From: an uncultured Methylomirabilota bacterium
GTDB lineage: Bacteria; Methylomirabilota; Methylomirabilia; Methylomirabilales; 2-02-FULL-66-22
Reading direction: 5' to 3'
Length of the DNA: 64,000 bases
Assembly (NCBI GenBank): GCA_963845565.1
Contig: CAWJSJ010000001.1
Location: 64,001 to 128,000, forward strand
The position numbers and the translations under genes were made by a program. The notes beneath the pieces were generated by a model. That model was not told where the DNA came from. It saw only the letters and a program-made list of their open reading frames with translations, and did not search any database. Of the stretch, positions 149-49,052 are shown in pieces; positions within the stretch are counted from its first letter, which is position 1, and every line of letters begins with the position of its first letter.

Positions 149-982
149 TCACCCAAGATGTTGGCGCAAGTGGACGATCGACTCCCGGAGATACTGGTCC
201 AGGATACCGGGCGACGCGCCGTCCTTGATCGAGCAAAACGGGTCCGGGCCGGGGGGCGTCACCTCCAGGACCACGGCCCCGGCGTACCGGATGGCGCGAA
301 GCGCGTCGGCCGGCGGGCCGAGATCGAGGTGGCCGCGGCCCAGCCCTTGGCGGTTGGTGTCGGCGACGTGGACGTGCCAGAGACGGGCGCCGGCCATGCG
401 GATCGAGCCCGCGGGGTCGGGTTCCTCCAGGTTGGCATGGAACAGATCCAGGGTGGTCCCGACCCAGGGCGAGCCGACCGCGTCCAGATAGGCGAGCGAC
501 GTCTCGAGGTTCGTCACCAGATAGGCCTCGTACCGGTTCAAGGGCTCGACGCAGATCCGGACGCCGAGCCGCTCCGCCTCGCGGGCGGCGGCCTGCATCC
601 CGGCGACCGACCAGGCCCACTCCTCGGCAACCGAGGCGAGCGGGCGCAGCCGGGGCTCGCCCGACGGCAGCATCTGGGTGAGCGGCGCCCCGATCTCGGC
701 GGCGAAGCGGAGACAGTCCACCAGGTACCCGACGGCGTCCGCGCGGATCCCCGGATCCGGATGGGCGAGATCGCGCCGGGTGGCCGGGACGGTGCACGAG
801 GCGGTGAGCCCGACCGGGGTCAGGCCAGTCTGCGTCAGGGCCCGGCGGACAGCGCCGGGATCGAAGACGCCGGGCTCCCCCGGAATCTCCACGCCGTCGT
901 ACCCGGCATCGGCGATCCGGGCGAGGGTCTCCTCCAGGGGTGCGTCCCCGTAGATCCACGCACAGACGCCGAATCGTGGCAT
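149..982 (-). CDS. Sugar phosphate isomerase/epimerase, TIM barrel (D-tagatose/D-psicose 3-epimerase-like)
   Basis: Motifs GYDGVEI, CVEPLNRYE, LDLFHANLEE, HVHVADTNRQGLGRGHLD, VVLE; GGAGGAG RBS. Confidence 0.9.
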   Translation of the reverse strand: MPRFGVCAWIYGDAPLEETLARIADAGYDGVEIPGEPGVFDPGAVRRALTQTGLTPVGLTASCTVPATRRDLAHPDPGIRADAVGYLVDCLRFAAEIGAPLTQMLPSGEPRLRPLASVAEEWAWSVAGMQAAAREAERLGVRICVEPLNRYEAYLVTNLETSLAYLDAVGSPWVGTTLDLFHANLEEPDPAGSIRMAGARLWHVHVADTNRQGLGRGHLDLGPPADALRAIRYAGAVVLEVTPPGPDPFCSIKDGASPGILDQYLRESIVHLRQHLG

Positions 983-37481: not shown

Positions 37482-38414
37482 GTGAGTGTTCTGGTGGTGG
37501 GTTCGGTGGCATTCGATACGATTCGGACCCCGTTCGGCGTGGCCACGGAGGTTCTGGGCGGCTCGGCGAACTACTTCTCGGTGGCGGCGAGCTTCTTCAC
37601 CGACGTCCGCTTGGTGGCCGTGGTCGGGGAGGATTTCCCCGATCAGCATCTGGACTTTCTGCGCGGCCGTGGGGTGGACCTGCGGGGCTTGCAGCGGGTG
37701 CCCGGGAAGACCTTCCGGTGGGTGGGCGAATACGGGTTTGATTTCAACGAGGCCCGGACGTTGGACACCCAGCTCAACGTCTTTGCCGACTTCGCGCCGG
37801 AGATCCCCGAGGATTACCGAGACTCGGACGTGGTGTTCCTGGCCAACATCGACCCCGACCTCCAGCGGGAGGTCCTGCAACAGGTACGGCGACCGGCGCT
37901 GGTGGCGGCCGATACCATGAACTACTGGATCACCGGCAAGCCGGATTCCCTCAAACGCACCTTGGCCATGGTGGACGCCCTCGTCATCAACGATGCGGAG
38001 ACCCGACAACTTGCCCAGGAGCCGAATCTGGTCCGGGCCGCGCGCACGATCCAGTCGTGGGGGCCGCGGATTCTGATCATCAAGCGGGGGGAGTACGGCG
38101 CGCTGCTCTGCGCGGAGGGGGAATGGTTCTCGGCCCCCGCGCTGCCGCTGGAGGCCGTCCAGGATCCCACCGGAGCGGGCGATTGCTTCGCCGGCGGCGC
38201 CGTGGGGTACTTGGCCAGCCGCATGCGCTTCGATGCGGCCCACCTGCGGCAGGCCATGATCATGGGGTCGGTCATGGCGTCCTTCAACGTCGAGGCGTTC
38301 TCGTTGGATCGGTTGCGCACCCTGACCGCGGGAGAGATCGAGACCCGCTTCAAGACCTTCAAGCGTCTGGTCCATTTCAACGACCTCGAGACGCGCCCGG
38401 ATGACTCCAGATGA
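37482..38414 (+). CDS. PfkB/ribokinase-family kinase
   Basis: VGSVAFD, LGGSA, DTMNYW, DPTGAGD.FAGG; GTG start after AAGGA. Confidence 0.92.
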   Translation: MSVLVVGSVAFDTIRTPFGVATEVLGGSANYFSVAASFFTDVRLVAVVGEDFPDQHLDFLRGRGVDLRGLQRVPGKTFRWVGEYGFDFNEARTLDTQLNVFADFAPEIPEDYRDSDVVFLANIDPDLQREVLQQVRRPALVAADTMNYWITGKPDSLKRTLAMVDALVINDAETRQLAQEPNLVRAARTIQSWGPRILIIKRGEYGALLCAEGEWFSAPALPLEAVQDPTGAGDCFAGGAVGYLASRMRFDAAHLRQAMIMGSVMASFNVEAFSLDRLRTLTAGEIETRFKTFKRLVHFNDLETRPDDSR

Positions 38415-38454
38415 GGCCGGGACCTCCCGGGTCCCCCTCGCACAGGCGGTGGCC

Positions 38455-39750
38455 ATGACAGACTGGCGCATTTTGGTGGCGGACGACGAGCCGTACGTTG
38501 TGCTGGCGATCAAGGAAGTCCTCGAGAGCCTGCCCGCCAGCGTGCTCGAGGCGCGGGACGGCGAAGAGGCGTTGCGGCTGGCGCGGGCCGAGCGCCCGGA
38601 CCTGATCCTGCTGGACGTGAAGATGCCGGGGCTGGACGGCTTCCAGGTCGCGGCGGCGCTTAAGAAAGACCCCGCGACGGCCGGCATTCCGCTGGTCTTC
38701 TTCAGCGCCCTCGGGGCCCCCAGCGAGAAGATCCGGGGACTGGAACTGGGCGCGGACGACTACCTGGCGAAGCCCATCGACGCCGAGGAGCTGAAGGCGC
38801 GGGCTCGCACGATTCTGCGGCGGAGTCGGCCGCGCAAGGGGCCGTCGTTCGTCGCCAGCGGGCAACTGCAGAACATGAGCCTGCCCTCCCTGGTGCTGGC
38901 CCTCGAGGGGGATCGCCGCACCACGCGACTCCTGTTGACCCGGGGCGAGGACCGCGGCGAGATCATCTTCGTGGACGGCCAGATCACTCGGGCGATCCAG
39001 GGGCCGCGGCAAGGCGAGGCGGCGGTCTACGAACTGTTGACGTGGCAGGACGGCGCGTTCCAGATGGCGGCGGTGGACCCGGCTCAGCAGATCGGGGGCG
39101 AGGTGGCGGCGCCGAACCAGGGTCTACTTCTGGAAGGCCAGCGCCGCCGCGAAGAGATACCGGACTTGAAGGGTCGTCTGGCCGCCATCACCGGGCCTCT
39201 TCGGGTTCCGCCCGCGGTGCGGGAGGCTGTGGACCGAAAGGCGCCGGCGCCCATGACCGGCCTGGTGTCCCTGTTGGACGGCGCACGGGCGATGGAGCAG
39301 ATCCTGGTCCACAGTCCGTTCGATACCTGGGCGACGCTCAAGACGTTGCTCCGACTGCTGGCCGTGGGCGCGTTGGATGCGGCGGCGCCGGAGTCCGAGC
39401 GGCGCGGGGGCTTGCGCCTCAAGGTCGGGCTGTCCATCGAATACCAGAGTCTCGGGTTGTGGCAGGAAAGCGCGACGTTCAATCTGTCGGCCTGGGGTGT
39501 CTTCATCCGGACGGCGGTTCCGTTCGATGCCGGCGAGGAGGTCATCCTGCGTTTCCAGGTGCCCGAGCGCGATCATCCAATCCGGGCCATGGGCCGGGTC
39601 GTATGGGCGAACGCCGATCCCAGCAAATGGGGCGGGATGGGCATGGGGATCCAGTTCGTGGATCTGGGCGACGAGGATCGCGGGGCGATCGAGATACACC
39701 TGGCCAACCTGGTCGCCGGGCAACTGTGCGGGGAGACGGAGAACTCATGA
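38455..39750 (+). CDS. Response regulator: REC + DUF4388 (PatA-N-like) + PilZ; alternative start 38401
   Basis: VADDE, LLDVKMP, KP; SGQL..SLPSLV..L; RRGGLR and NLSAWG; GMGIQF. Confidence 0.85.
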   Translation: MTDWRILVADDEPYVVLAIKEVLESLPASVLEARDGEEALRLARAERPDLILLDVKMPGLDGFQVAAALKKDPATAGIPLVFFSALGAPSEKIRGLELGADDYLAKPIDAEELKARARTILRRSRPRKGPSFVASGQLQNMSLPSLVLALEGDRRTTRLLLTRGEDRGEIIFVDGQITRAIQGPRQGEAAVYELLTWQDGAFQMAAVDPAQQIGGEVAAPNQGLLLEGQRRREEIPDLKGRLAAITGPLRVPPAVREAVDRKAPAPMTGLVSLLDGARAMEQILVHSPFDTWATLKTLLRLLAVGALDAAAPESERRGGLRLKVGLSIEYQSLGLWQESATFNLSAWGVFIRTAVPFDAGEEVILRFQVPERDHPIRAMGRVVWANADPSKWGGMGMGIQFVDLGDEDRGAIEIHLANLVAGQLCGETENS

Positions 39751-39805
39751 TGCCGTTCGGCCGGAATGGGGTGGAGCACACGACGGAGAGAAACGGGGAC
39801 GGGCG

Positions 39806-41119
39806 ATGACAGCGTGGCGCGTGTTGCTGGCGGAAGATGAGCCGCTCATGGCCCAGATGATGGCGGACATGCTGGCCGAGTTGCCGGTCGAGGTGACCCT
39901 GGCCCGCAACGGGCGGGAGGCGCTGGCCCAAATGGAGCGGGTCCAACCGGATCTGGTGCTCCTCGATTGCATGATGCCGGAGCTGGACGGTTTCGAGGTC
40001 GCCGCCGCCCTCAAGGCCACCCCCGCCACCCAGGACATCCCGATCATCTTCCTGACGGCCCGCGGCCGGGTCGAGGACAAGGTGCGGGGCCTCGAGTTGG
40101 GCGCGGAGGACTATCTCATCAAACCCGTCCGACGCGAGGAGTTGTTGGCGCGGGTGCGGAACGTCCTGCGTCGCTGCGAGGCCCGTCGGGCCGCCGTGCC
40201 GGCGGAGTCGTCGCTGATGCGCGGCCGCCTGGAGGTCATGGGACTGCCCAACATCGTCCAGGTGCTGGAAGCGGAGCGGCGTACGGGCACGCTCCGGCTG
40301 ACCAGCCAGGGGCGGCGCGGCGAGATCCTGTTCCTGGAGGGGCGGGTATCGTACGCCGTCGAGGGCCCGCGCCAGGGAGAGCCGGCCGTGTACCGGATGC
40401 TGGCCTGGGACAAGGGCGACTTCGAGCTGGAGCTGACCTCGGGCACGGGTCCCACGGCCGCCCAGATCACGCGGCCGAATCAATCGCTGTTGATGGAGGG
40501 GGTACGCCGTCTGGACGAGATCCCGGCACTCCGTCGCGCCGTGGGGTCGTCGGACGGAGCCGTCAAGATGTTCCCGGTCTTTCGGGACGGTCTGCTCCGG
40601 CGCACGTTGCCGAGCGGGTTCCAGCAGCTGGTGATGCTCTGCGACGGCAGCCACGATCTCGGACAGCTCCTGGACACCAGCGCCCTGGACGAATGGGCGG
40701 TCTTGCGCTACCTGGCGCGCTTCATGAAGCTGGGAATGCTGGAGCACGGCGTGGCCGCCAAGCGCACGTCCCCACGCCTGGGTATTCAGATCCCCGTCGA
40801 GTTCACCAGCGTGAAGGAGCTCAAGGCGGCTCGCAGCCTGGACGTCTCGGCGCGCGGGCTGTTCCTCCGCACCGGCCAGGTGTACCCGGTCGGCGACGAT
40901 GTCCTGGTCCGGTTCAACTTGCCCGGTGTCCCCGAGCCGTTCAAGACGGTGGGGCGTGTCATGTGGAGCAGCGCGACGGACACCCCCCAGGGCTTGCCGG
41001 CGGGCATGGGCATTCAATTTCTCGACCTGGATGGGCGGGAGCAGGAAATCATCGAGCAGTACGTCGTCGAACTGTTGCTCGATCGGGTCCTGACCGAAGA
41101 GCCCAACGGCAAGACATAG
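39806..41119 (+). CDS. Response regulator: REC + DUF4388 + PilZ (tandem paralog)
   Basis: LAEDE, LLDCMMP; RGRLEVMGLPNIVQ..RRTGTL; KRTSPR and DVSARG; GMGIQF. Confidence 0.87.
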   Translation: MTAWRVLLAEDEPLMAQMMADMLAELPVEVTLARNGREALAQMERVQPDLVLLDCMMPELDGFEVAAALKATPATQDIPIIFLTARGRVEDKVRGLELGAEDYLIKPVRREELLARVRNVLRRCEARRAAVPAESSLMRGRLEVMGLPNIVQVLEAERRTGTLRLTSQGRRGEILFLEGRVSYAVEGPRQGEPAVYRMLAWDKGDFELELTSGTGPTAAQITRPNQSLLMEGVRRLDEIPALRRAVGSSDGAVKMFPVFRDGLLRRTLPSGFQQLVMLCDGSHDLGQLLDTSALDEWAVLRYLARFMKLGMLEHGVAAKRTSPRLGIQIPVEFTSVKELKAARSLDVSARGLFLRTGQVYPVGDDVLVRFNLPGVPEPFKTVGRVMWSSATDTPQGLPAGMGIQFLDLDGREQEIIEQYVVELLLDRVLTEEPNGKT

Positions 41120-41272
41120 CCGGCTGCTGAAAAAGGCCCATCTGCGGCGTTGGAGCGCCTCGCCACTCGCTGCGACGTACCGCCAGTAGGCCTCGCTCGG
41201 GCTGCAGCGCTCCGCCTTGCGTCTGGACCTATTTGAGCAGCCCAAGGAAGAGCGGGTTTTTTTGGATCCTGT
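41117..41272 (+). mobile_element. MITE-like element copy B, at the TAG stop of the REC-PilZ gene
   Basis: TAGCCGGCTGCTGAAAAAGGCCCATCTGC...CTGGACCTATTTGAGCAGCC. Confidence 0.8.
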
Positions 41273-41545: not shown

Positions 41546-44218
41546 GTGACCACCAACACCATCCGTATTCGCGGCGCTCGCGAGCACAACCTGAAGTCCA
41601 TCGATCTTGACATCCCCCGCGACCAGCTCGTCGTCATCACCGGGGTATCGGGTTCGGGGAAGTCCTCCCTGGCCTTCGACACGATCTACGCCGAGGGCCA
41701 GCGGCGCTACGTGGAATCCCTCTCGGCCTACGCCCGGCAGTTCCTGGAGCAGATGGATAAGCCGGACGTGGACCTGATCGAGGGGTTGTCCCCCGCCATT
41801 TCCATCGAGCAGAAGACCACCAGCAAGAACCCGCGCTCCACCGTGGCCACGGTCACCGAGATCTACGACTACCTCCGGCTGCTCTATGCGCGCATCGGCC
41901 GGCCCTCCTGTTTCCGCTGCGGGAAGCCCATCGCGTCCCAGACCGTCAGCCAGATCGTGGATCAGGTGCTGGGTCTGCCGAGCGGGACCAAGATCCAGGT
42001 TCTGGCCCCTGTGGTCCGTGGGCGGAAAGGGGAGTACCGCCAGATCTTCGTCCAGATGCGAAAGGAGGGTTTTGTCCGCGTCCGGGTGAACGGCACGCTC
42101 CACGATCTAGACCATGCGATCGAGCTGGACAAGAATAAGAAGCACACCATCGAGGTGGTGGTGGACCGGCTGGTGGTCTCGGACACTCTGGGGCGCCGGT
42201 TGGCGGACTCGCTGGAGACGGCGCTCAAGCTGGCCGAGGGGATCGTGACGGTCAACCGGCTCGATGGGGGCAAAGACCTGATGTTTTCCGAGCGGATGGC
42301 CTGTATCGAGTGCGGAGTCAGCTATCCCGAGATCAGCCCGCGCATCTTCTCGTTCAACAACCCGCACGGTGCGTGCCCTGCCTGCGACGGCCTGGGCACC
42401 CGGGTGGACCTGCGCGCCGCGTCACTGGATCCCAGCCTGCGGGAACTGGGGGACGAGTTCTTCGGAGCCAGCCTGGGCGCGCTGGATCGCCGGTACAAGG
42501 AGACGCAGTCCTCGCGGGTCCGGGAAGAGATCGAGAGCTACGTCGAGCGTCTGGCCAGCGTTCAGCCGTGCGCGGAGTGTCAGGGGGCGCGGCTTCGGAA
42601 GGAGTCGCTGGCCATCCGCGTGGGGGGGCTGAACATCGCCGAGCTCACCCGGAAATCGGTCAAGGATGCGGTGGCCTTCTTCGGCGCCCTGGGGGCGGCC
42701 GGCTCCAACGGCGACCCGCTGGGACTCACGGAGAAGGAGCGGGAGATCGCCCGCCGAATCCTCAAGGAGATCCGGGAGCGGCTGGGTTTCCTGTTGAACG
42801 TGGGCCTGGACTACCTGACGCTGGACCGGACGGCCGCCACGCTGGCGGGCGGGGAGGGCCAGCGCATCCGTTTGGCGACGCAGATCGGCAGCTCGCTGAT
42901 GGGCGTGCTGTATATCCTGGACGAGCCCAGTATCGGGCTTCACCAGCGGGACAACGTCCGTCTCCTGAACACGCTGAAGCGGCTCCGGGACCTCGGCAAC
43001 ACCGTGCTGGTGGTGGAGCACGACGAGGAGACGATCCGCGCGGCGGATTATGTGATCGACCTGGGGCCCGGCGCCGGGGTGGCGGGGGGCCGACTGGTGT
43101 CCGCCGGGGCGCCGGACGTCATCATGGCCGACCGCGCGTCGTTGACGGGGCGCTATCTGTCGGGAGAGCTCTCCATCCCCGTTCCTGCGCAGCGCCGTCC
43201 GTTGACCGGGCAGCAGTTGACGATCCGGGGTGCACGGGAGCACAACCTGAAGAACATCGAGGTGGAGATCCCGCTCGGACTCTTCACCTGCGTCACGGGG
43301 GTGTCCGGTTCGGGGAAAAGCACCCTGGTCACGGACATCCTGCGCAAGGCGCTGGATGCCGCTCTCTACGGCGGCCGGGAGCGGCCGGGGGCCCACGACA
43401 AGATCCTGGGGATGGAGCAGATCGACAAGGTGATCGACATCGATCAATCCCCCATCGGCCGGACGCCGCGGAGCAACCCGGCCACCTACACCGGTGTGTT
43501 CAGCTTCATCCGCGACTTGTACGCCCTGACCCCCGAAGCCCGGATGCGGGGCTACCAGCCCGGCCGATTCAGCTTCAACGTCAAGGGCGGTCGCTGCGAG
43601 GCCTGCCAGGGGGATGGACTCATCCAGATCGAGATGCACTTCCTGCCGGATGTGTACGTCACCTGCGAGGTGTGCAAAGGGAAACGGTATAACCGGGAGA
43701 CGCTGGAGATCGCCTATAAGGGCAGGAGCATCGCGGAGGTCCTGGGCATGACGGTGCAGGAGGCGCTGCGTTTCTTTGAGAATGTGCCGCGCATCCGCGA
43801 GAAGATGCAGACGCTCCATGACGTCGGCCTGGGGTACATCAAGCTGGGCCAATCGGCCACGACGTTGTCCGGCGGCGAGGCGCAACGGGTCAAGCTGAGC
43901 CGGGAACTCTCTCGGCGCGGCACCGGGCGCACGCTCTATATCCTCGACGAGCCAACAACCGGGCTCCATTTTGCCGACATCCAGCAATTGTTGGATGTCC
44001 TGCATCGGTTGCGGGACGCGGGGAACACGGTGCTGGTGATCGAGCATAACCTGGACGTCGTGAAAACGGCGGACTACGTCATCGACCTCGGCCCCGAGGG
44101 TGGGGACGGGGGCGGACAGATCGTGGCGAGCGGGACCCCGGAAGAGGTCGCGCGCGTCAAGGTGTCCCACACCGGCCAGTTCCTGAAGCGTGTGCTGCGA
44201 AACGGCCGAGGCAAGTAG
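41546..44218 (+). CDS. uvrA: Excinuclease ABC subunit A with a short insertion domain
   Basis: Two [16 protein letters not shown] modules, Zn-finger Cys pairs, [11 protein letters not shown]. Confidence 0.97.
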
Positions 44219-44480
44219 GGGGTCGATGCGCCGTGGTTCTGCCCGTCGGGATACGTGCCCCCTCTCCGAGGGCCGGTCGGGCCTGACGGGGGTGCCAGCG
44301 TCCCCGGGCCAATCGTCCCATTCTCGAGCCGCAAAGGGTGACACAGTGTCCCATTTCAAACCGTACCAGGGTTGTGTCCTTGCGTGAGCTATCGGCGTGG
44401 TTTCTCGCGAACTCCATATTTGGTGGTAAGTTACACGCTGGCCGTGGCTGGCGTATCTTGGGCTGGGAAGAGGGCGAAGG

Positions 44481-44495
44481 TGGCATGCCGCTTGC
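44481..44495 (+). promoter_or_regulatory. Sigma54 (-24/-12) promoter
   Basis: TGGCATGCCGCTTGC: GG-N10-GC with TGGCA and TTGC cores. Confidence 0.7.
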
Positions 44496-44506
44496 CTCTA
44501 TTGATC

Positions 44507-44662
44507 CCAGTTGATTTCGAGAGGATAGACCGCGCAGGGGAATCTCTGGTGCCGGCCCGGAATATCGGGCGCGCACGTCACGGTAGCCGCGGGACCGACT
44601 CCCCCCCCTCCCCGGTCCCGCGACCAGGCCCCCGGCCCGAGCAATCGGGCCGGGGGTTTTTT
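44507..44662 (+). ncRNA. Candidate sigma54-dependent small RNA (~155 nt)
   Basis: Lies between the sigma54 promoter and a strong terminator; successive hairpins, one with a C-rich loop; no credible ORF. Confidence 0.55.
44629..44662 (+). terminator. Rho-independent terminator
   Basis: CCCCCGGCCCGA-GCAA-TCGGGCCGGGGG-TTTTTT. Confidence 0.9.
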
Positions 44663-44715: not shown

Positions 44716-44743
44716 TTGACAGGCCGTATTGAACCTGTAAAGT
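44716..44743 (+). promoter_or_regulatory. Sigma70-type promoter for the REC genes
   Basis: TTGACA-N16-TAAAGT. Confidence 0.5.
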
Positions 44744-44827: not shown

Positions 44828-45256
44828 ATGAGTCGCCTTCTCGTTCTGGTTGTGAGCGACAACCAAACCGAGGTGCGCGTTCTGAGTGAGATCCTCCGGG
44901 AACAATCCCGGGGGGAGGTATCCGTGGTCGGGGCGGCGGGTCGAGGGGAAGACGCGCTGAGCCGCGCCATGGCTCTTCGGCCTCACGTGATCCTGGTCAA
45001 CCTCGATCCGGCGGAGGAGGGCGACCTGGAGATCCTCCCGCGGTTACGCGGATTATTCGTGGACGTCGGCATCGTGGCGCTGATCGCGGCGGAGAACGGC
45101 GGTCTTGATGAAGCGGCTCGGGCCGCCGGGGCAGACCACGCTGTCGTCAGAAGCCAGGTGCGAAGCCATCTGGCGTCGGCCGTCAGGCAGGCGGCACAAA
45201 AGGCGCGGGCCCGGCAACGCGTGATCGATCAGAGCGCCATGGATCTGACACCCTAG
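44828..45256 (+). CDS. Atypical (pseudo) receiver domain protein
   Basis: REC-like pattern, but Asn at the phospho-Asp position (VILVNLD) and no conserved Lys; GGAGGAGG RBS. Confidence 0.75.
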   Translation: MSRLLVLVVSDNQTEVRVLSEILREQSRGEVSVVGAAGRGEDALSRAMALRPHVILVNLDPAEEGDLEILPRLRGLFVDVGIVALIAAENGGLDEAARAAGADHAVVRSQVRSHLASAVRQAAQKARARQRVIDQSAMDLTP

Positions 45257-45966: not shown

Positions 45967-47463
45967 GTGTCAAGACGAGGAGGTGTGTGGCCGAAAGGCC
46001 CCTGGAACCTGAGCCTGCGCGGCAAACTGCTGTTCATGATGTTCGGCCTGCTGATGCTGGTGCTGGCCACATTGTTCGCCCTGTATTCGAATGCAGAGCG
46101 GGACCTGATCACGCAGGTCGAACGGCATACCACCGACCTCAGCACCGCCATCCAGCTCAGCGTCGAGCAGTTGACCTCGAAGGGGCGGACCAGCGAGGCA
46201 CGCCTGCAGGACTACGTGCAGCGCCTGAAACAACGCGGCGTCGGCGAGCTCTCCATCGTCAGCAACGAGGAAGAGGTGATCGCCTCTTCCAACCCGCGGC
46301 GGGTGGGGGTACGGGTCGACCCCAAGCGAAAGGATATCTTCATCACGGCCCGACTCGGCGAAGAGGTGGAGGGCGGGCGGGGGCAAAAGACCTACAATCT
46401 TCTCGTGCCGATCATGGTCAACAATCAGCGGAGCGGATACATCCTGATCAGCATGGTCCTGGACGATTTCGCCGAGTTGGCCCGGATCAATTTCCTCAAG
46501 CGGTTGGCGGGGACCATTCTTATTTTCGCCGTGGGGATCGGCGGGGCCGTGGTGCTGGCGTGGACCTACACCAAGCCAATCTCCCACGTGGTGGACGTGG
46601 CCCGGCGGGTTGCCCAGGGGCGCCTGGACGAGCGGTTGCCGGCCAATCGGCGCGACGAGATCGGCGAACTGAACCGCAGCTTCAACGAGATGGTCGACCG
46701 CCTACAGGAGCGGGTCGAACTGGAGGCCCGGCTCCATCGGGCGGAGCGGGTGGCGGCGATCGCGCATCTGGCCTCGGGGATCGCCCACGAGGTCCGCAAC
46801 CCGCTGAGCACCATCAGCATGACGGTCGGCCACCTGAAGGCGCATTTTCCGCCCAGTGCGCCTGCGGAACGGGAAGAGTTCATGCGCCTGACCTCCATGG
46901 TCATGGAGGAGATCCGGCGCCTGGACGATATGATCCGGAGTTTCCTGAAATACGGCAAACCGCTCAACCTGAAGCGGCAGCCGGCCGACGTGCGTACGTT
47001 GCTCGACGAGGTGCTGGACGTGGCCGCACAGAAGGCCGCCGTGGAGCGAATCCAGATCACGCGGACCTACCCGACCGCGCTGCCCGAGATCTGGGTGGAC
47101 GTGCCGCATCTCAAGACGTGCTTCATGAATCTGGTCCTCAACGCCTTTCAGGCGATGCCCGACGGCGGGGAGTTCCGGGTGACGGCGGCCGGCGGCGCCC
47201 CCCCGGGGGAATCCACCGTGGGGGAATCGGCTGACGGCTGGCTGGAGATCCGGTTCCAGGATAGCGGGATGGGGATTAAGCCAGAGGACCTCCCCAAGGT
47301 CTTCGAGCCGTATTTCACCACCAAGGAGGTGGGGATCGGGCTGGGGTTGGCCTTGACGAAGCAGATCGTCGAGGAGCACGGCGGACAGATCGAGATCTCC
47401 AGCGATCCGGGGCAGGGAACGGCGGTCCGACTTCGGCTTCCCGTGGGGGCGCCCAAGGTATGA
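45967..47463 (+). CDS. HAMP-domain sensor histidine kinase (start approximate)
   Basis: Two TM segments, RRDEIG, AHEVRNPL, NAFQA, DSG.GI, YFTTK..G.GLGL. Confidence 0.93.
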   Translation: MSRRGGVWPKGPWNLSLRGKLLFMMFGLLMLVLATLFALYSNAERDLITQVERHTTDLSTAIQLSVEQLTSKGRTSEARLQDYVQRLKQRGVGELSIVSNEEEVIASSNPRRVGVRVDPKRKDIFITARLGEEVEGGRGQKTYNLLVPIMVNNQRSGYILISMVLDDFAELARINFLKRLAGTILIFAVGIGGAVVLAWTYTKPISHVVDVARRVAQGRLDERLPANRRDEIGELNRSFNEMVDRLQERVELEARLHRAERVAAIAHLASGIAHEVRNPLSTISMTVGHLKAHFPPSAPAEREEFMRLTSMVMEEIRRLDDMIRSFLKYGKPLNLKRQPADVRTLLDEVLDVAAQKAAVERIQITRTYPTALPEIWVDVPHLKTCFMNLVLNAFQAMPDGGEFRVTAAGGAPPGESTVGESADGWLEIRFQDSGMGIKPEDLPKVFEPYFTTKEVGIGLGLALTKQIVEEHGGQIEISSDPGQGTAVRLRLPVGAPKV

Positions 47464-48920
47464 GCAAGGGACAGATTCTGGTCGTGGATGACGAAGCGGC
47501 GCAGCGCGAGATCCTGCGCACGATCCTCACGGCAGAGGGGTACCGGGTCGAGACCGCGGGCACCGCGGCGGAGGCCCTGGACAAGGGGGGGAAACATCGG
47601 TTCGACCTGGTGCTCTCGGACCTGCGGATGCCGGGCGCGGATGGCCTGTCGCTGGTTCGCGATCTCAGCCGGGAGGACCCGCCCACGCTGGTCATCATCA
47701 TGACAGGCTTCGGCTCGCTGGATTCTGCCGAGCAGGCCATGACGCAGGGCGCCTTCGACTATCTCACGAAGCCGCTGGAGCGGGAAGACCTCTTGCGGAT
47801 CGTGGGGCGCGCCTTCGACCGGATCGGGCTCATTCAGGAGAATCGCCTGCTCCGACAGCAGCTGGAGGAACGGTATCGCGTCGCGGGCCTCGTGGGCAGT
47901 CATTACCGAATGCAGGAGGTCTTTAACAAGCTCCACAAGGTCTCCAGTTCGGTCTCCACCGTGCTGATCATGGGCGAGAGCGGTACCGGCAAGGAGTTGG
48001 TCGCCCGCGCCATCCACGGGCATGGTCCCCGGCGGGATCGGACGTTTGTCGCGGTCAGTTGCGCGGCGATTCCCGAGACCCTGATCGAGAGCGAATTGTT
48101 CGGCTACGAAAAAGGGGCGTTCACCGGCGCCATGACCCGGCGGCAGGGGTTGTTTGAGGCGGCGGACAAGAGCACCTTGTTCCTGGACGAGATCGGCGAA
48201 CTCAACGTGAACATGCAGTCCAAAGTCCTGCGCGCTTTGCAGGAACGGGAGATTCGGCGGGTCGGGACCCACGAGAGCGTCAAGGTGGATGTCCGCATCA
48301 TCGCGGCGACGAACAGGAATTTGGAGGAGGAAGTCGCCAAGGGCAACTTCCGGGAGGATCTGTACTACCGCCTGAATGTGGTCACGATTCCGCTCCCACC
48401 GCTCCGGGAGCGGAGTACGGATATTCCTCAACTGGCCGAATACTTCGTGACGCGTGTTTGTGGAGAGGCCGGCCGGCCGCCGATGCCGATCACGACGGAG
48501 GCCATGCGGTTGCTGCTGCACTACCACTGGCCCGGGAATGTTCGGCAACTGGAGGCCATCCTGCAGCGGGCCGTGCTGCTGTCGGACGGACAGAGGATCG
48601 ACTACTCCGATCTGCCCATCGAGGTTCGGTTTTCCGCGCTGCCGTCCCGTGAGCCGGACACCGGACCGACCGGCGGAGCGCACCGATTCCTCTTGCCCCC
48701 GCAGGGGATCGATCTGGAGGGGGTCGAGCGGGATTTCATCCTCCAGGCCATGGAGGCGACGGGGTGGGTGATCGCGAAGGCAGCGAAGCTGCTGGGGTTG
48801 AGTTATCGCACGCTTCAGTACCGACTGGAGAAGTTCCAGATCCGCCGGGAGGGAAGCGAAGGGGTGGGGTCGGCCGAGGAGCAGCCCGAAGGGGCTGACG
48901 GCGAACCCCGAGACGCATAA
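47460..48920 (+). CDS. Sigma54-dependent NtrC-family response regulator
   Basis: REC; GESGTGKE, GAFTGA, LFLDEIG, WPGNVR; C-terminal Fis HTH. Confidence 0.96.
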   Translation: MSKGQILVVDDEAAQREILRTILTAEGYRVETAGTAAEALDKGGKHRFDLVLSDLRMPGADGLSLVRDLSREDPPTLVIIMTGFGSLDSAEQAMTQGAFDYLTKPLEREDLLRIVGRAFDRIGLIQENRLLRQQLEERYRVAGLVGSHYRMQEVFNKLHKVSSSVSTVLIMGESGTGKELVARAIHGHGPRRDRTFVAVSCAAIPETLIESELFGYEKGAFTGAMTRRQGLFEAADKSTLFLDEIGELNVNMQSKVLRALQEREIRRVGTHESVKVDVRIIAATNRNLEEEVAKGNFREDLYYRLNVVTIPLPPLRERSTDIPQLAEYFVTRVCGEAGRPPMPITTEAMRLLLHYHWPGNVRQLEAILQRAVLLSDGQRIDYSDLPIEVRFSALPSREPDTGPTGGAHRFLLPPQGIDLEGVERDFILQAMEATGWVIAKAAKLLGLSYRTLQYRLEKFQIRREGSEGVGSAEEQPEGADGEPRDA

Positions 48921-48956: not shown

Positions 48957-49052
48957 ATGGGCAGCGTCGTCAAGAAGCGTCGGAAAAAGATCGCCAAGCA
49001 TAAGTACAAGAAGCTGCTGAAGCGGACGAGACACCAGCGACGAGGGAAGTAG
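48957..49052 (+). CDS. Small basic protein bS22/AURKAIP1-COX24 family (31 aa; absent from the ORF track)
   Basis: MGSVVKKRRKKIAKHKYKKLLKRTRHQRRGK*, with AAAGGGGG RBS. Confidence 0.9.
   Translation: MGSVVKKRRKKIAKHKYKKLLKRTRHQRRGK

Follow-up and report, generated by a model that had tools for sequence, protein, structure and literature searches.

A probable sigma54-type non-coding RNA gene with a C-rich loop downstream of uvrA, restricted to one genus of uncultured Methylomirabilota

Does the gap that follows uvrA in the genome of an uncultured Methylomirabilota bacterium hold an RNA gene of its own, and if so, how would the RNA act and what would control it? The window, i.e. the whole stretch of DNA that was analysed, is 64,000 nt long; its features whose coordinates are written as start..end all lie on the plus strand. 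The uvrA gene (41546..44218, Pfam UvrA_inter) ends at 44218 and the next gene starts at 44828, leaving an intergenic gap of approximately 609-611 nt, in line with the 610 bp given in an earlier note on this DNA. That note proposed a standalone sigma54-type non-coding RNA gene in the gap. The proposal is strongly supported, because enhancer, promoter, stems and loop are all conserved. From these sequence comparisons we consider it very probable that the window holds a real, previously uncatalogued and genus-restricted sigma54 non-coding RNA gene. The genome of origin has a GC content of 66% and encodes rpoN; of its 38 matches to sigma54 activators, 31 are full-length in domain content, i.e. full activators. 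No Hfq was found in this genome, which is 98.7% complete.

The promoter predicted for the RNA, TGGCATGCCGCTTGC, is a sigma54 -24/-12 element at 44481..44495 and the sole strict motif of this kind in the window. Eighteen of 100 window shuffles also yield one, and the evidence for the promoter is therefore its conservation, not the motif match. Described earlier as a good promoter, the box is present and is kept in all 20 genome loci and in G005, a relative described below. Among the metagenomic matches listed, the motif is found in 34 of 36 homologues versus one of 44 non-homologous pattern matches. One of the two homologues without it has a TGGTAT variant, and the other has none in 241 nt. As a separate observation, locus L132 (~858-945, minus strand) is a core homologue of 90 bits that lacks both uvrA and, over the 241 nt preceding it, a sigma54 promoter; it is either a rearranged copy or an assembly artefact.

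Two 17 bp sites are located upstream of the promoter. In brief, the proximal enhancer site, UAS2 (44337..44353), is an imperfect inverted repeat with the genus consensus RGAGACAAAGTGGCTCA, and the distal site, UAS1 (44304..44320), is a degenerate palindrome, which 19 of the 20 loci have at 32-34 bp upstream of UAS2, L020 being the exception. Copies of the octamer GTCCCATT at 44315 and 44348 form the 3' halves of the two sites, 33 bp apart; the earlier note gave 44347 for the second. Two copies per 64 kb is chance level (57 of 100 shuffles), and the octamer alone is thus no evidence. The suggestion that these repeats are part of an enhancer holds for the 17 bp sites, which are conserved at a fixed distance upstream of the promoter. 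From UAS2 to the -24 box there are 143-147 bp in 19 of 20 loci, 132 in L019 and 144 in G005, whereas the DNA between enhancer and promoter has diverged to 49% mean column identity. The pair of enhancer and promoter has the top score in its own genome and contains the sole strong enhancer match among 228 promoter-like sites, which suggests that the regulator serves a single target. The enhancer might be read as ZraR-like; the motif did not occur among the literature matches listed.

An IHF-like site is located at 44421..44433. It is weak in this genome and includes a TT that is invariant in the promoter alignment. Measured against the IHF consensus as quoted in PMC3045617, 28 distinct loci out of 50 have at least seven of its nine letters, usually 59-61 bp upstream of the -24 box. 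An IHF-like gene motif is present in the genome.

With the whole gap as query, matches nearly always covered only positions 44583-44662. This 80 nt core comprises the C-rich hairpin and the terminator and is present in 19 of 20 same-genus genomes. The RNA gene is single-copy per genome, and uvrA, a constant neighbour outside the RNA unit, is located upstream of the core in all 20 genome loci. G005 is the sole relative without the core; it has enhancer and promoter, and its contig ends 76 nt past the promoter. In a sample of the phylum, an RNA model (R2) gave strong matches in seven of seven genus relatives and none in 18 genomes of the sister family f7 or in 12 of family f4. Weak matches in two genomes outside the genus (33.7 bits in G079 and 32 bits in G028) were rejected as terminators that follow other genes and have no promoter; G028 enters the present conclusions through the counts alone. 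Near the kinase gene discussed below, the model gave nothing convincing in eight sister-family and f3 loci or in 84 other loci. In metagenomes, 36 of 80 loci with the loop pattern are true homologues scoring 77-114 bits, among the matches listed and with many close kin. The loop pattern had no matches in viral contigs. Core, promoter and structure were thus found conserved genus-wide by the homologue search.

The predicted RNA is approximately 155 nt long in this genome and 97-172 nt across loci; two lengths of 388 nt among 50 loci are artefacts of the terminator pattern. Its start is placed by promoter geometry. The variable and dispensable 5' part (44507..44582) measures 15-89 nt across 20 loci and is not conserved in sequence. 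It is followed by a conserved hairpin (44583..44626), with a 10 bp core stem at 44588-44622 and a short basal extension, and by an intrinsic terminator hairpin (44628..44662) with a GCAA loop and U6 at 44657-44662. The hairpin loop (44598..44612) is C-rich, single-stranded and a putative seed. It contains CCUCC, the core of the 16S anti-Shine-Dalgarno, which is also found in the 16S 3' end. The loop is near-invariant save for its run of Cs (six, seven and eight Cs in 2, 40 and 8 of 50 loci), and in 47 of the 50 distinct loci it is predicted to be unpaired with a mean probability of 0.8 or higher.

The minimum free energy fold contains a hairpin at 44549-44576, the 44588-44622 stem with a 15 nt loop, the GCAA-capped stem and U6, with a stability z of -3.05 (one of 200 shuffles is as stable). 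The 10 bp stem, the 15 nt loop and the terminator named in the earlier note are both folded and conserved; its 44549-44576 hairpin folds but is not conserved. In the first helix 97.5% of the cells are paired over 14 pairs, four of them compensated, and in the terminator helix, closed by a variable tetraloop, 98.2% over 11 pairs, again with four compensated. Taken together, 97.8% of the cells pair and eight of 25 stem pairs are compensated in 20 sequences, a count over related sequences that are not independent and hence not a probability. None of 500 shuffles reaches eight compensated pairs, and slid controls give at most two. Pair counts from another alignment (A3) were set aside, as its rows include reverse-strand and chance matches. 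In 49 of 50 loci the predicted pairing of the terminator reaches 0.9 or higher, and no rival structure competes with it. A terminator scan with three hits did not include it; fold and alignment are its support.

The earlier note saw no credible open reading frame in the ~155 nt, and we agree. Frames led by a Shine-Dalgarno sequence occur in 11 of 50 loci, are not shared across the genus and are lacking within the RNA of this genome. Any reading frame is broken, since the length of the C-run and of the 5' part vary.

No Rfam family matched the window at the gathering cut-off, and the 14 weak matches to the RNA are all below cut-off, i.e. it belongs to no catalogued family. The best of these is sX13 (RF02232), which scores 22.1 bits at E 0.062 against a cut-off of 50; shared design is the preferred explanation of this match. 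As described in the available part of PMC3771888, sX13 of Xanthomonas also has two 3' hairpins and a C-rich loop, and represses Hfq-independently at G-rich motifs near start codons. It differs in having three C-rich loops, where the present RNA has one, and in belonging to a different phylum, and that part of the paper gives no sigma54 control for it. According to the portion available of PMC6486639, the 6C RNA of Actinobacteria also carries a C-run in a hairpin loop and, needing no chaperone, uses it in a high-GC genome to pair with G-rich ribosome-binding sites. Unlike the present RNA, 6C has more than one such loop, and it occurs only in high-GC Gram-positives. The present RNA has no Rfam match to it at E up to 10.

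Other known RNAs resemble the predicted control. GlmY of Enterobacteriaceae is a sigma54 sRNA with tandem activator sites more than 100 bp upstream and IHF sites, and is always located upstream of its kinase and activator genes (PMC3045617, in part). The GlrR sites, TGTC-N10-GACA, differ from the enhancer found here, GlmY is a protein decoy, and there is no Rfam similarity. Pxr of Myxococcales is a lineage-restricted sigma54 sRNA encoded beside an NtrC-like two-component system in an organism without Hfq, and one C in its loop is essential (passages of PMC5684412 and PMC5568312). Unlike the present gene, pxr is located downstream of its activator gene pxrR and its 5' stems are conserved, whereas here the 3' stems are; again there is no Rfam similarity. 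The targets of Pxr are still largely predicted, as far as the accessible text of PMC11928866 goes. By description only, the gene can also be likened to Dv_sRNA2 / DVU0679 of Desulfovibrio, for which a response-regulator survey found an sRNA beside the regulator gene as a target (PMC3333781, in part). In the available parts of these sources, known sigma54 sRNAs adjoin their activators (PMC3045617, PMC5684412, PMC5568312, PMC3333781). The present locus shares the features of the sigma54 sRNA class, i.e. a conserved -24/-12 box, activator sites 100-200 bp upstream, and a genome that encodes rpoN and a GAFTGA-containing activator, as well as that of the C-rich-loop sRNAs, a conserved unpaired C-rich loop on a covarying stem. 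By analogy, the RNA most likely works like sX13 and 6C and is wired like GlmY and Pxr, while being a member of none.

We suggest the following mechanism. A phosphorylated enhancer-binding protein, most likely the one encoded at 47460 and fed by the kinase encoded at 45985, would bind both sites and activate the sigma54 polymerase at the RNA promoter. The loop of the RNA would then pair with the G-rich extended Shine-Dalgarno sequences of several mRNAs and keep 30S subunits from binding, an action that, like that of 6C and sX13, would need no Hfq. The set of targets would probably be broad and species-dependent. Judging from the characterised relatives in design, it is reasonably likely that the RNA acts in this way, by Hfq-independent base-pairing of its loop to G-rich ribosome-binding sites. 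Both stems are conserved in sequence beyond what loop pairing alone needs, which counts against it.

Two G-rich ribosome-binding sites had been put forward as complements of the loop, and both are present at their places (44816 and 48943). They do not discriminate as targets: the first belongs to the gene at 44828, a receiver-domain gene that follows the RNA in only five of 20 genome loci, and the second, the six-G site of bS22, is equally conserved in both families, including f7, which is without the RNA. The bS22 gene itself encodes 31 aa (window 48957-49052) and is located between the activator gene and an ECF sigma operon. Rough gene calling gave 5058 predicted genes; the ribosome-binding window contains GGAGG in 1346 of them, GGGAGG in 289 and GGGAGGG in 83. 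A perfect 10 nt complement of the loop occurs before ATG 134 times in 21 genomes, versus 76 times for the reversed control, as expected for any word resembling a Shine-Dalgarno sequence. Clustering of 81 ORFs behind this complement (~90 of the 134 matches, with ORFs below 40 aa dropped) gave 71 clusters, none of them in more than three genomes. Ranking within the own genome, pattern searches in the genus, clustering, neighbouring genes and ilvB likewise yielded no conserved target. The pairing energies at the ilvB ribosome-binding site (-15.8 to -33.4 kcal/mol in 19 genus loci) overlap those in outgroups (-9.5 to -27.1 kcal/mol in 11 loci); one ilvB site matches the loop at 14 of 14 positions. 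The failure to find a dedicated target fits broad, low-specificity pairing or a protein partner.

The ilvB leader (L468-L486; in this genome C1 ~1008665-1008710, minus strand) has a feature of its own. Most genus genomes, but none of the outgroups shown, have a short hairpin with a CGAUC-type loop just before the G-rich ribosome-binding site. It is a possible cis element or protein site.

A protein partner is the basis of a possible but unlikely alternative, in which the same sigma54 RNA gene makes a decoy comparable to GlmY, whose stems and poly-C loop titrate a KH-domain protein, Rho or RapZ. Conservation of the stem sequences, terminator arms included, would fit such a role, as would the failure to find a conserved mRNA target, and motifs of KhpA, Rho and RapZ occur in the genome (pattern matches only). 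Csr/Rsm-type sponge RNAs have several GGA motifs in their loops. The conserved loops of the present RNA have no GGA and csrA was found in one of four genus genomes tested; this type of sponge was rejected, and the same findings argue against a decoy. The layout is like that of glmY upstream of glrK-yfhG-glrR (PMC3045617, in part), but up to an E value of 10 the Rfam search returned neither GlmY nor GlmZ, and a single binding site per RNA would make a poor sponge. Furthermore, the C-rich loops characterised in the available parts of PMC3771888 and PMC6486639 pair with RNA.

An improbable alternative is that the element acts in cis, either as a sigma54 leader with a leaky terminator that feeds the kinase and activator operon (positive autoregulation), or mainly as the 3' end of the uvrA mRNA with a hairpin released by processing. 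The kinase gene begins ~0.4-0.5 kb past the core in several loci. In several genomes the uvrA stop directly precedes the enhancer, leaving no room for a terminator of its own; uvrA transcription may share the terminator of the RNA gene by read-through. The AAGCU just before the core is partly conserved. Ten RNA runs contain part of the stretch, and four were compared, as contigs only, in which uncovered parts prove nothing. One contig of 4.3 kb starts 62 nt before the core and runs into the downstream genes, which would fit a cis element, and two contigs cover DNA upstream of the predicted start. Another, X4, is 79 nt long and equals the core with zero differences, which could also arise from strains diverging upstream. 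On a discrete transcript of the RNA gene, the four runs speak neither for nor against. Against a cis role, the downstream genes vary and up to 13 kb can intervene, and the terminator is firmly paired with no competitor. The receiver-domain gene that comes next here is a separate unit with its own sigma70-type promoter (44716..44743, 10/12 consensus), as the earlier note had it. In addition, a plain terminator leaves the invariant loop unexplained. That the locus is no RNA gene at all, being instead a small ORF or, at the level of the DNA, a palindrome or a repeat, is highly improbable: the expression picture from the RNA-run contigs is mixed and spurious ORFs cross the gap, but the element is single-copy, with an oriented promoter, enhancer and U-tail, its stems tolerate G-U substitutions, and indels in the C-run and variable 5' lengths break the frames, with Shine-Dalgarno-led ORFs in only 11 of 50 loci.

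We return to the sigma54 RNA gene and its candidate regulators, the NtrC-type system downstream that had been suggested as its driver. In brief, the gene at 45985..47463 encodes a membrane sensor kinase (Pfam HAMP-HisKA-HATPase) with a probable single Cache sensor as candidate signal input, and the gene at 47460..48920 encodes an NtrC-type enhancer-binding protein (Pfam receiver-AAA+-HTH) with an intact GAFTGA, the candidate activator. Look-alikes of the kinase sensor in the Atlas carry sCache families, which is a lead only, and no solved relative of the sensor domain was found. Close relatives of the kinase are labelled candidate division NC10, Methylomirabilales or Methylomirabilis sp. The activator reaches the cut-off of none of the named NCBIfam families listed, and a search of the genome contigs with it found only distant paralogues. 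Further along the operon are genes for bS22, for an ECF sigma factor with an anti-sigma factor and for a DUF3106 protein; by inference only, this content hints at envelope stress as the signal.

Of 20 genus relatives, 19 have an orthologue of the kinase. It shares contig and strand with the RNA in 14 of 20 genomes, 0.3-13 kb downstream, and five more are compatible with contig breaks; in G010 the distance is at least 77 kb. The recognition helix of the activator does not vary within the genus or the sister family. The genome has 25 strict sigma54 motifs, all outside confidently called genes; 13 of them are within 6 kb of an activator gene, where ~7% would be expected by chance. The linkage speaks for the neighbouring system as driver. 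On the other hand, orthologues of the activator (C-terminus) with the same recognition helix are present in 19 of 20 f7 genomes and in f3, both without the RNA and the enhancer. The complete f7 genome G043 has 24 strict sigma54 promoters, none with the enhancer, and enhancer matches in the sister family were discarded as chance-level. The number of full activators in the genome, 31, also counts against singling out this one. On balance, the 47460 protein is probably the activator of the RNA promoter.

Family f7, probably a methanotroph family, has a different sigma54 RNA candidate (L441:3469-3760, i.e. G043:C1 ~2229968 onward, and L445-L461), present in 17 of 20 f7 genomes and in none of 20 genus (g1) relatives. 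It is located directly behind another NtrC-type activator, 43% identical to the 47460 protein, and has its own repeated enhancer motif and a hairpin with a variable stem, whose conserved C-rich loop is closed by CCG/CGG, as is that of the g1 RNA. The candidate matches no Rfam family, has no clear U-rich terminator, is undetected by R2, and is unrelated-looking to the g1 RNA. One could speculate that more than once in Methylomirabilales a dedicated sigma54 two-component system has come to serve a sole output, a hairpin RNA whose loop mimics the 16S anti-Shine-Dalgarno and damps the translation of genes with strong ribosome-binding sites as a class, not as fixed targets, the g1 and f7 RNAs being mutually exclusive versions. 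We regard this as doubtful. The f7 RNA is checkable in enrichment cultures.

We found no regulatory sRNA of Methylomirabilota in the literature searched, mostly open papers without their supplements, whose RNA motif lists might contain one. If true, the present RNA would be the first regulatory sRNA family for uncultured Methylomirabilota. The mechanism class itself is already known; the RNA would add an independent lineage to the pattern of Hfq-less, GC-rich bacteria that regulate via C-rich loops. The predicted wiring is complete, with enhancer sequence, promoter and candidate sensor and activator, and could be rebuilt in a laboratory host.

Some minor observations were made elsewhere in the genome. 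Two strict sigma54 motifs (C2 ~476072 and C4 ~259726) have no called gene for more than 2.5 kb; they may be promoters of further non-coding RNAs or of genes that the calling missed. Upstream of uvrA, the window contains two tandem receiver-DUF4388-PilZ genes (38401-41119), followed by a ~120 nt non-coding, repeat-like element (41118-41245) that is very similar to an element following uvrA in the f3 genome G022 (L359).
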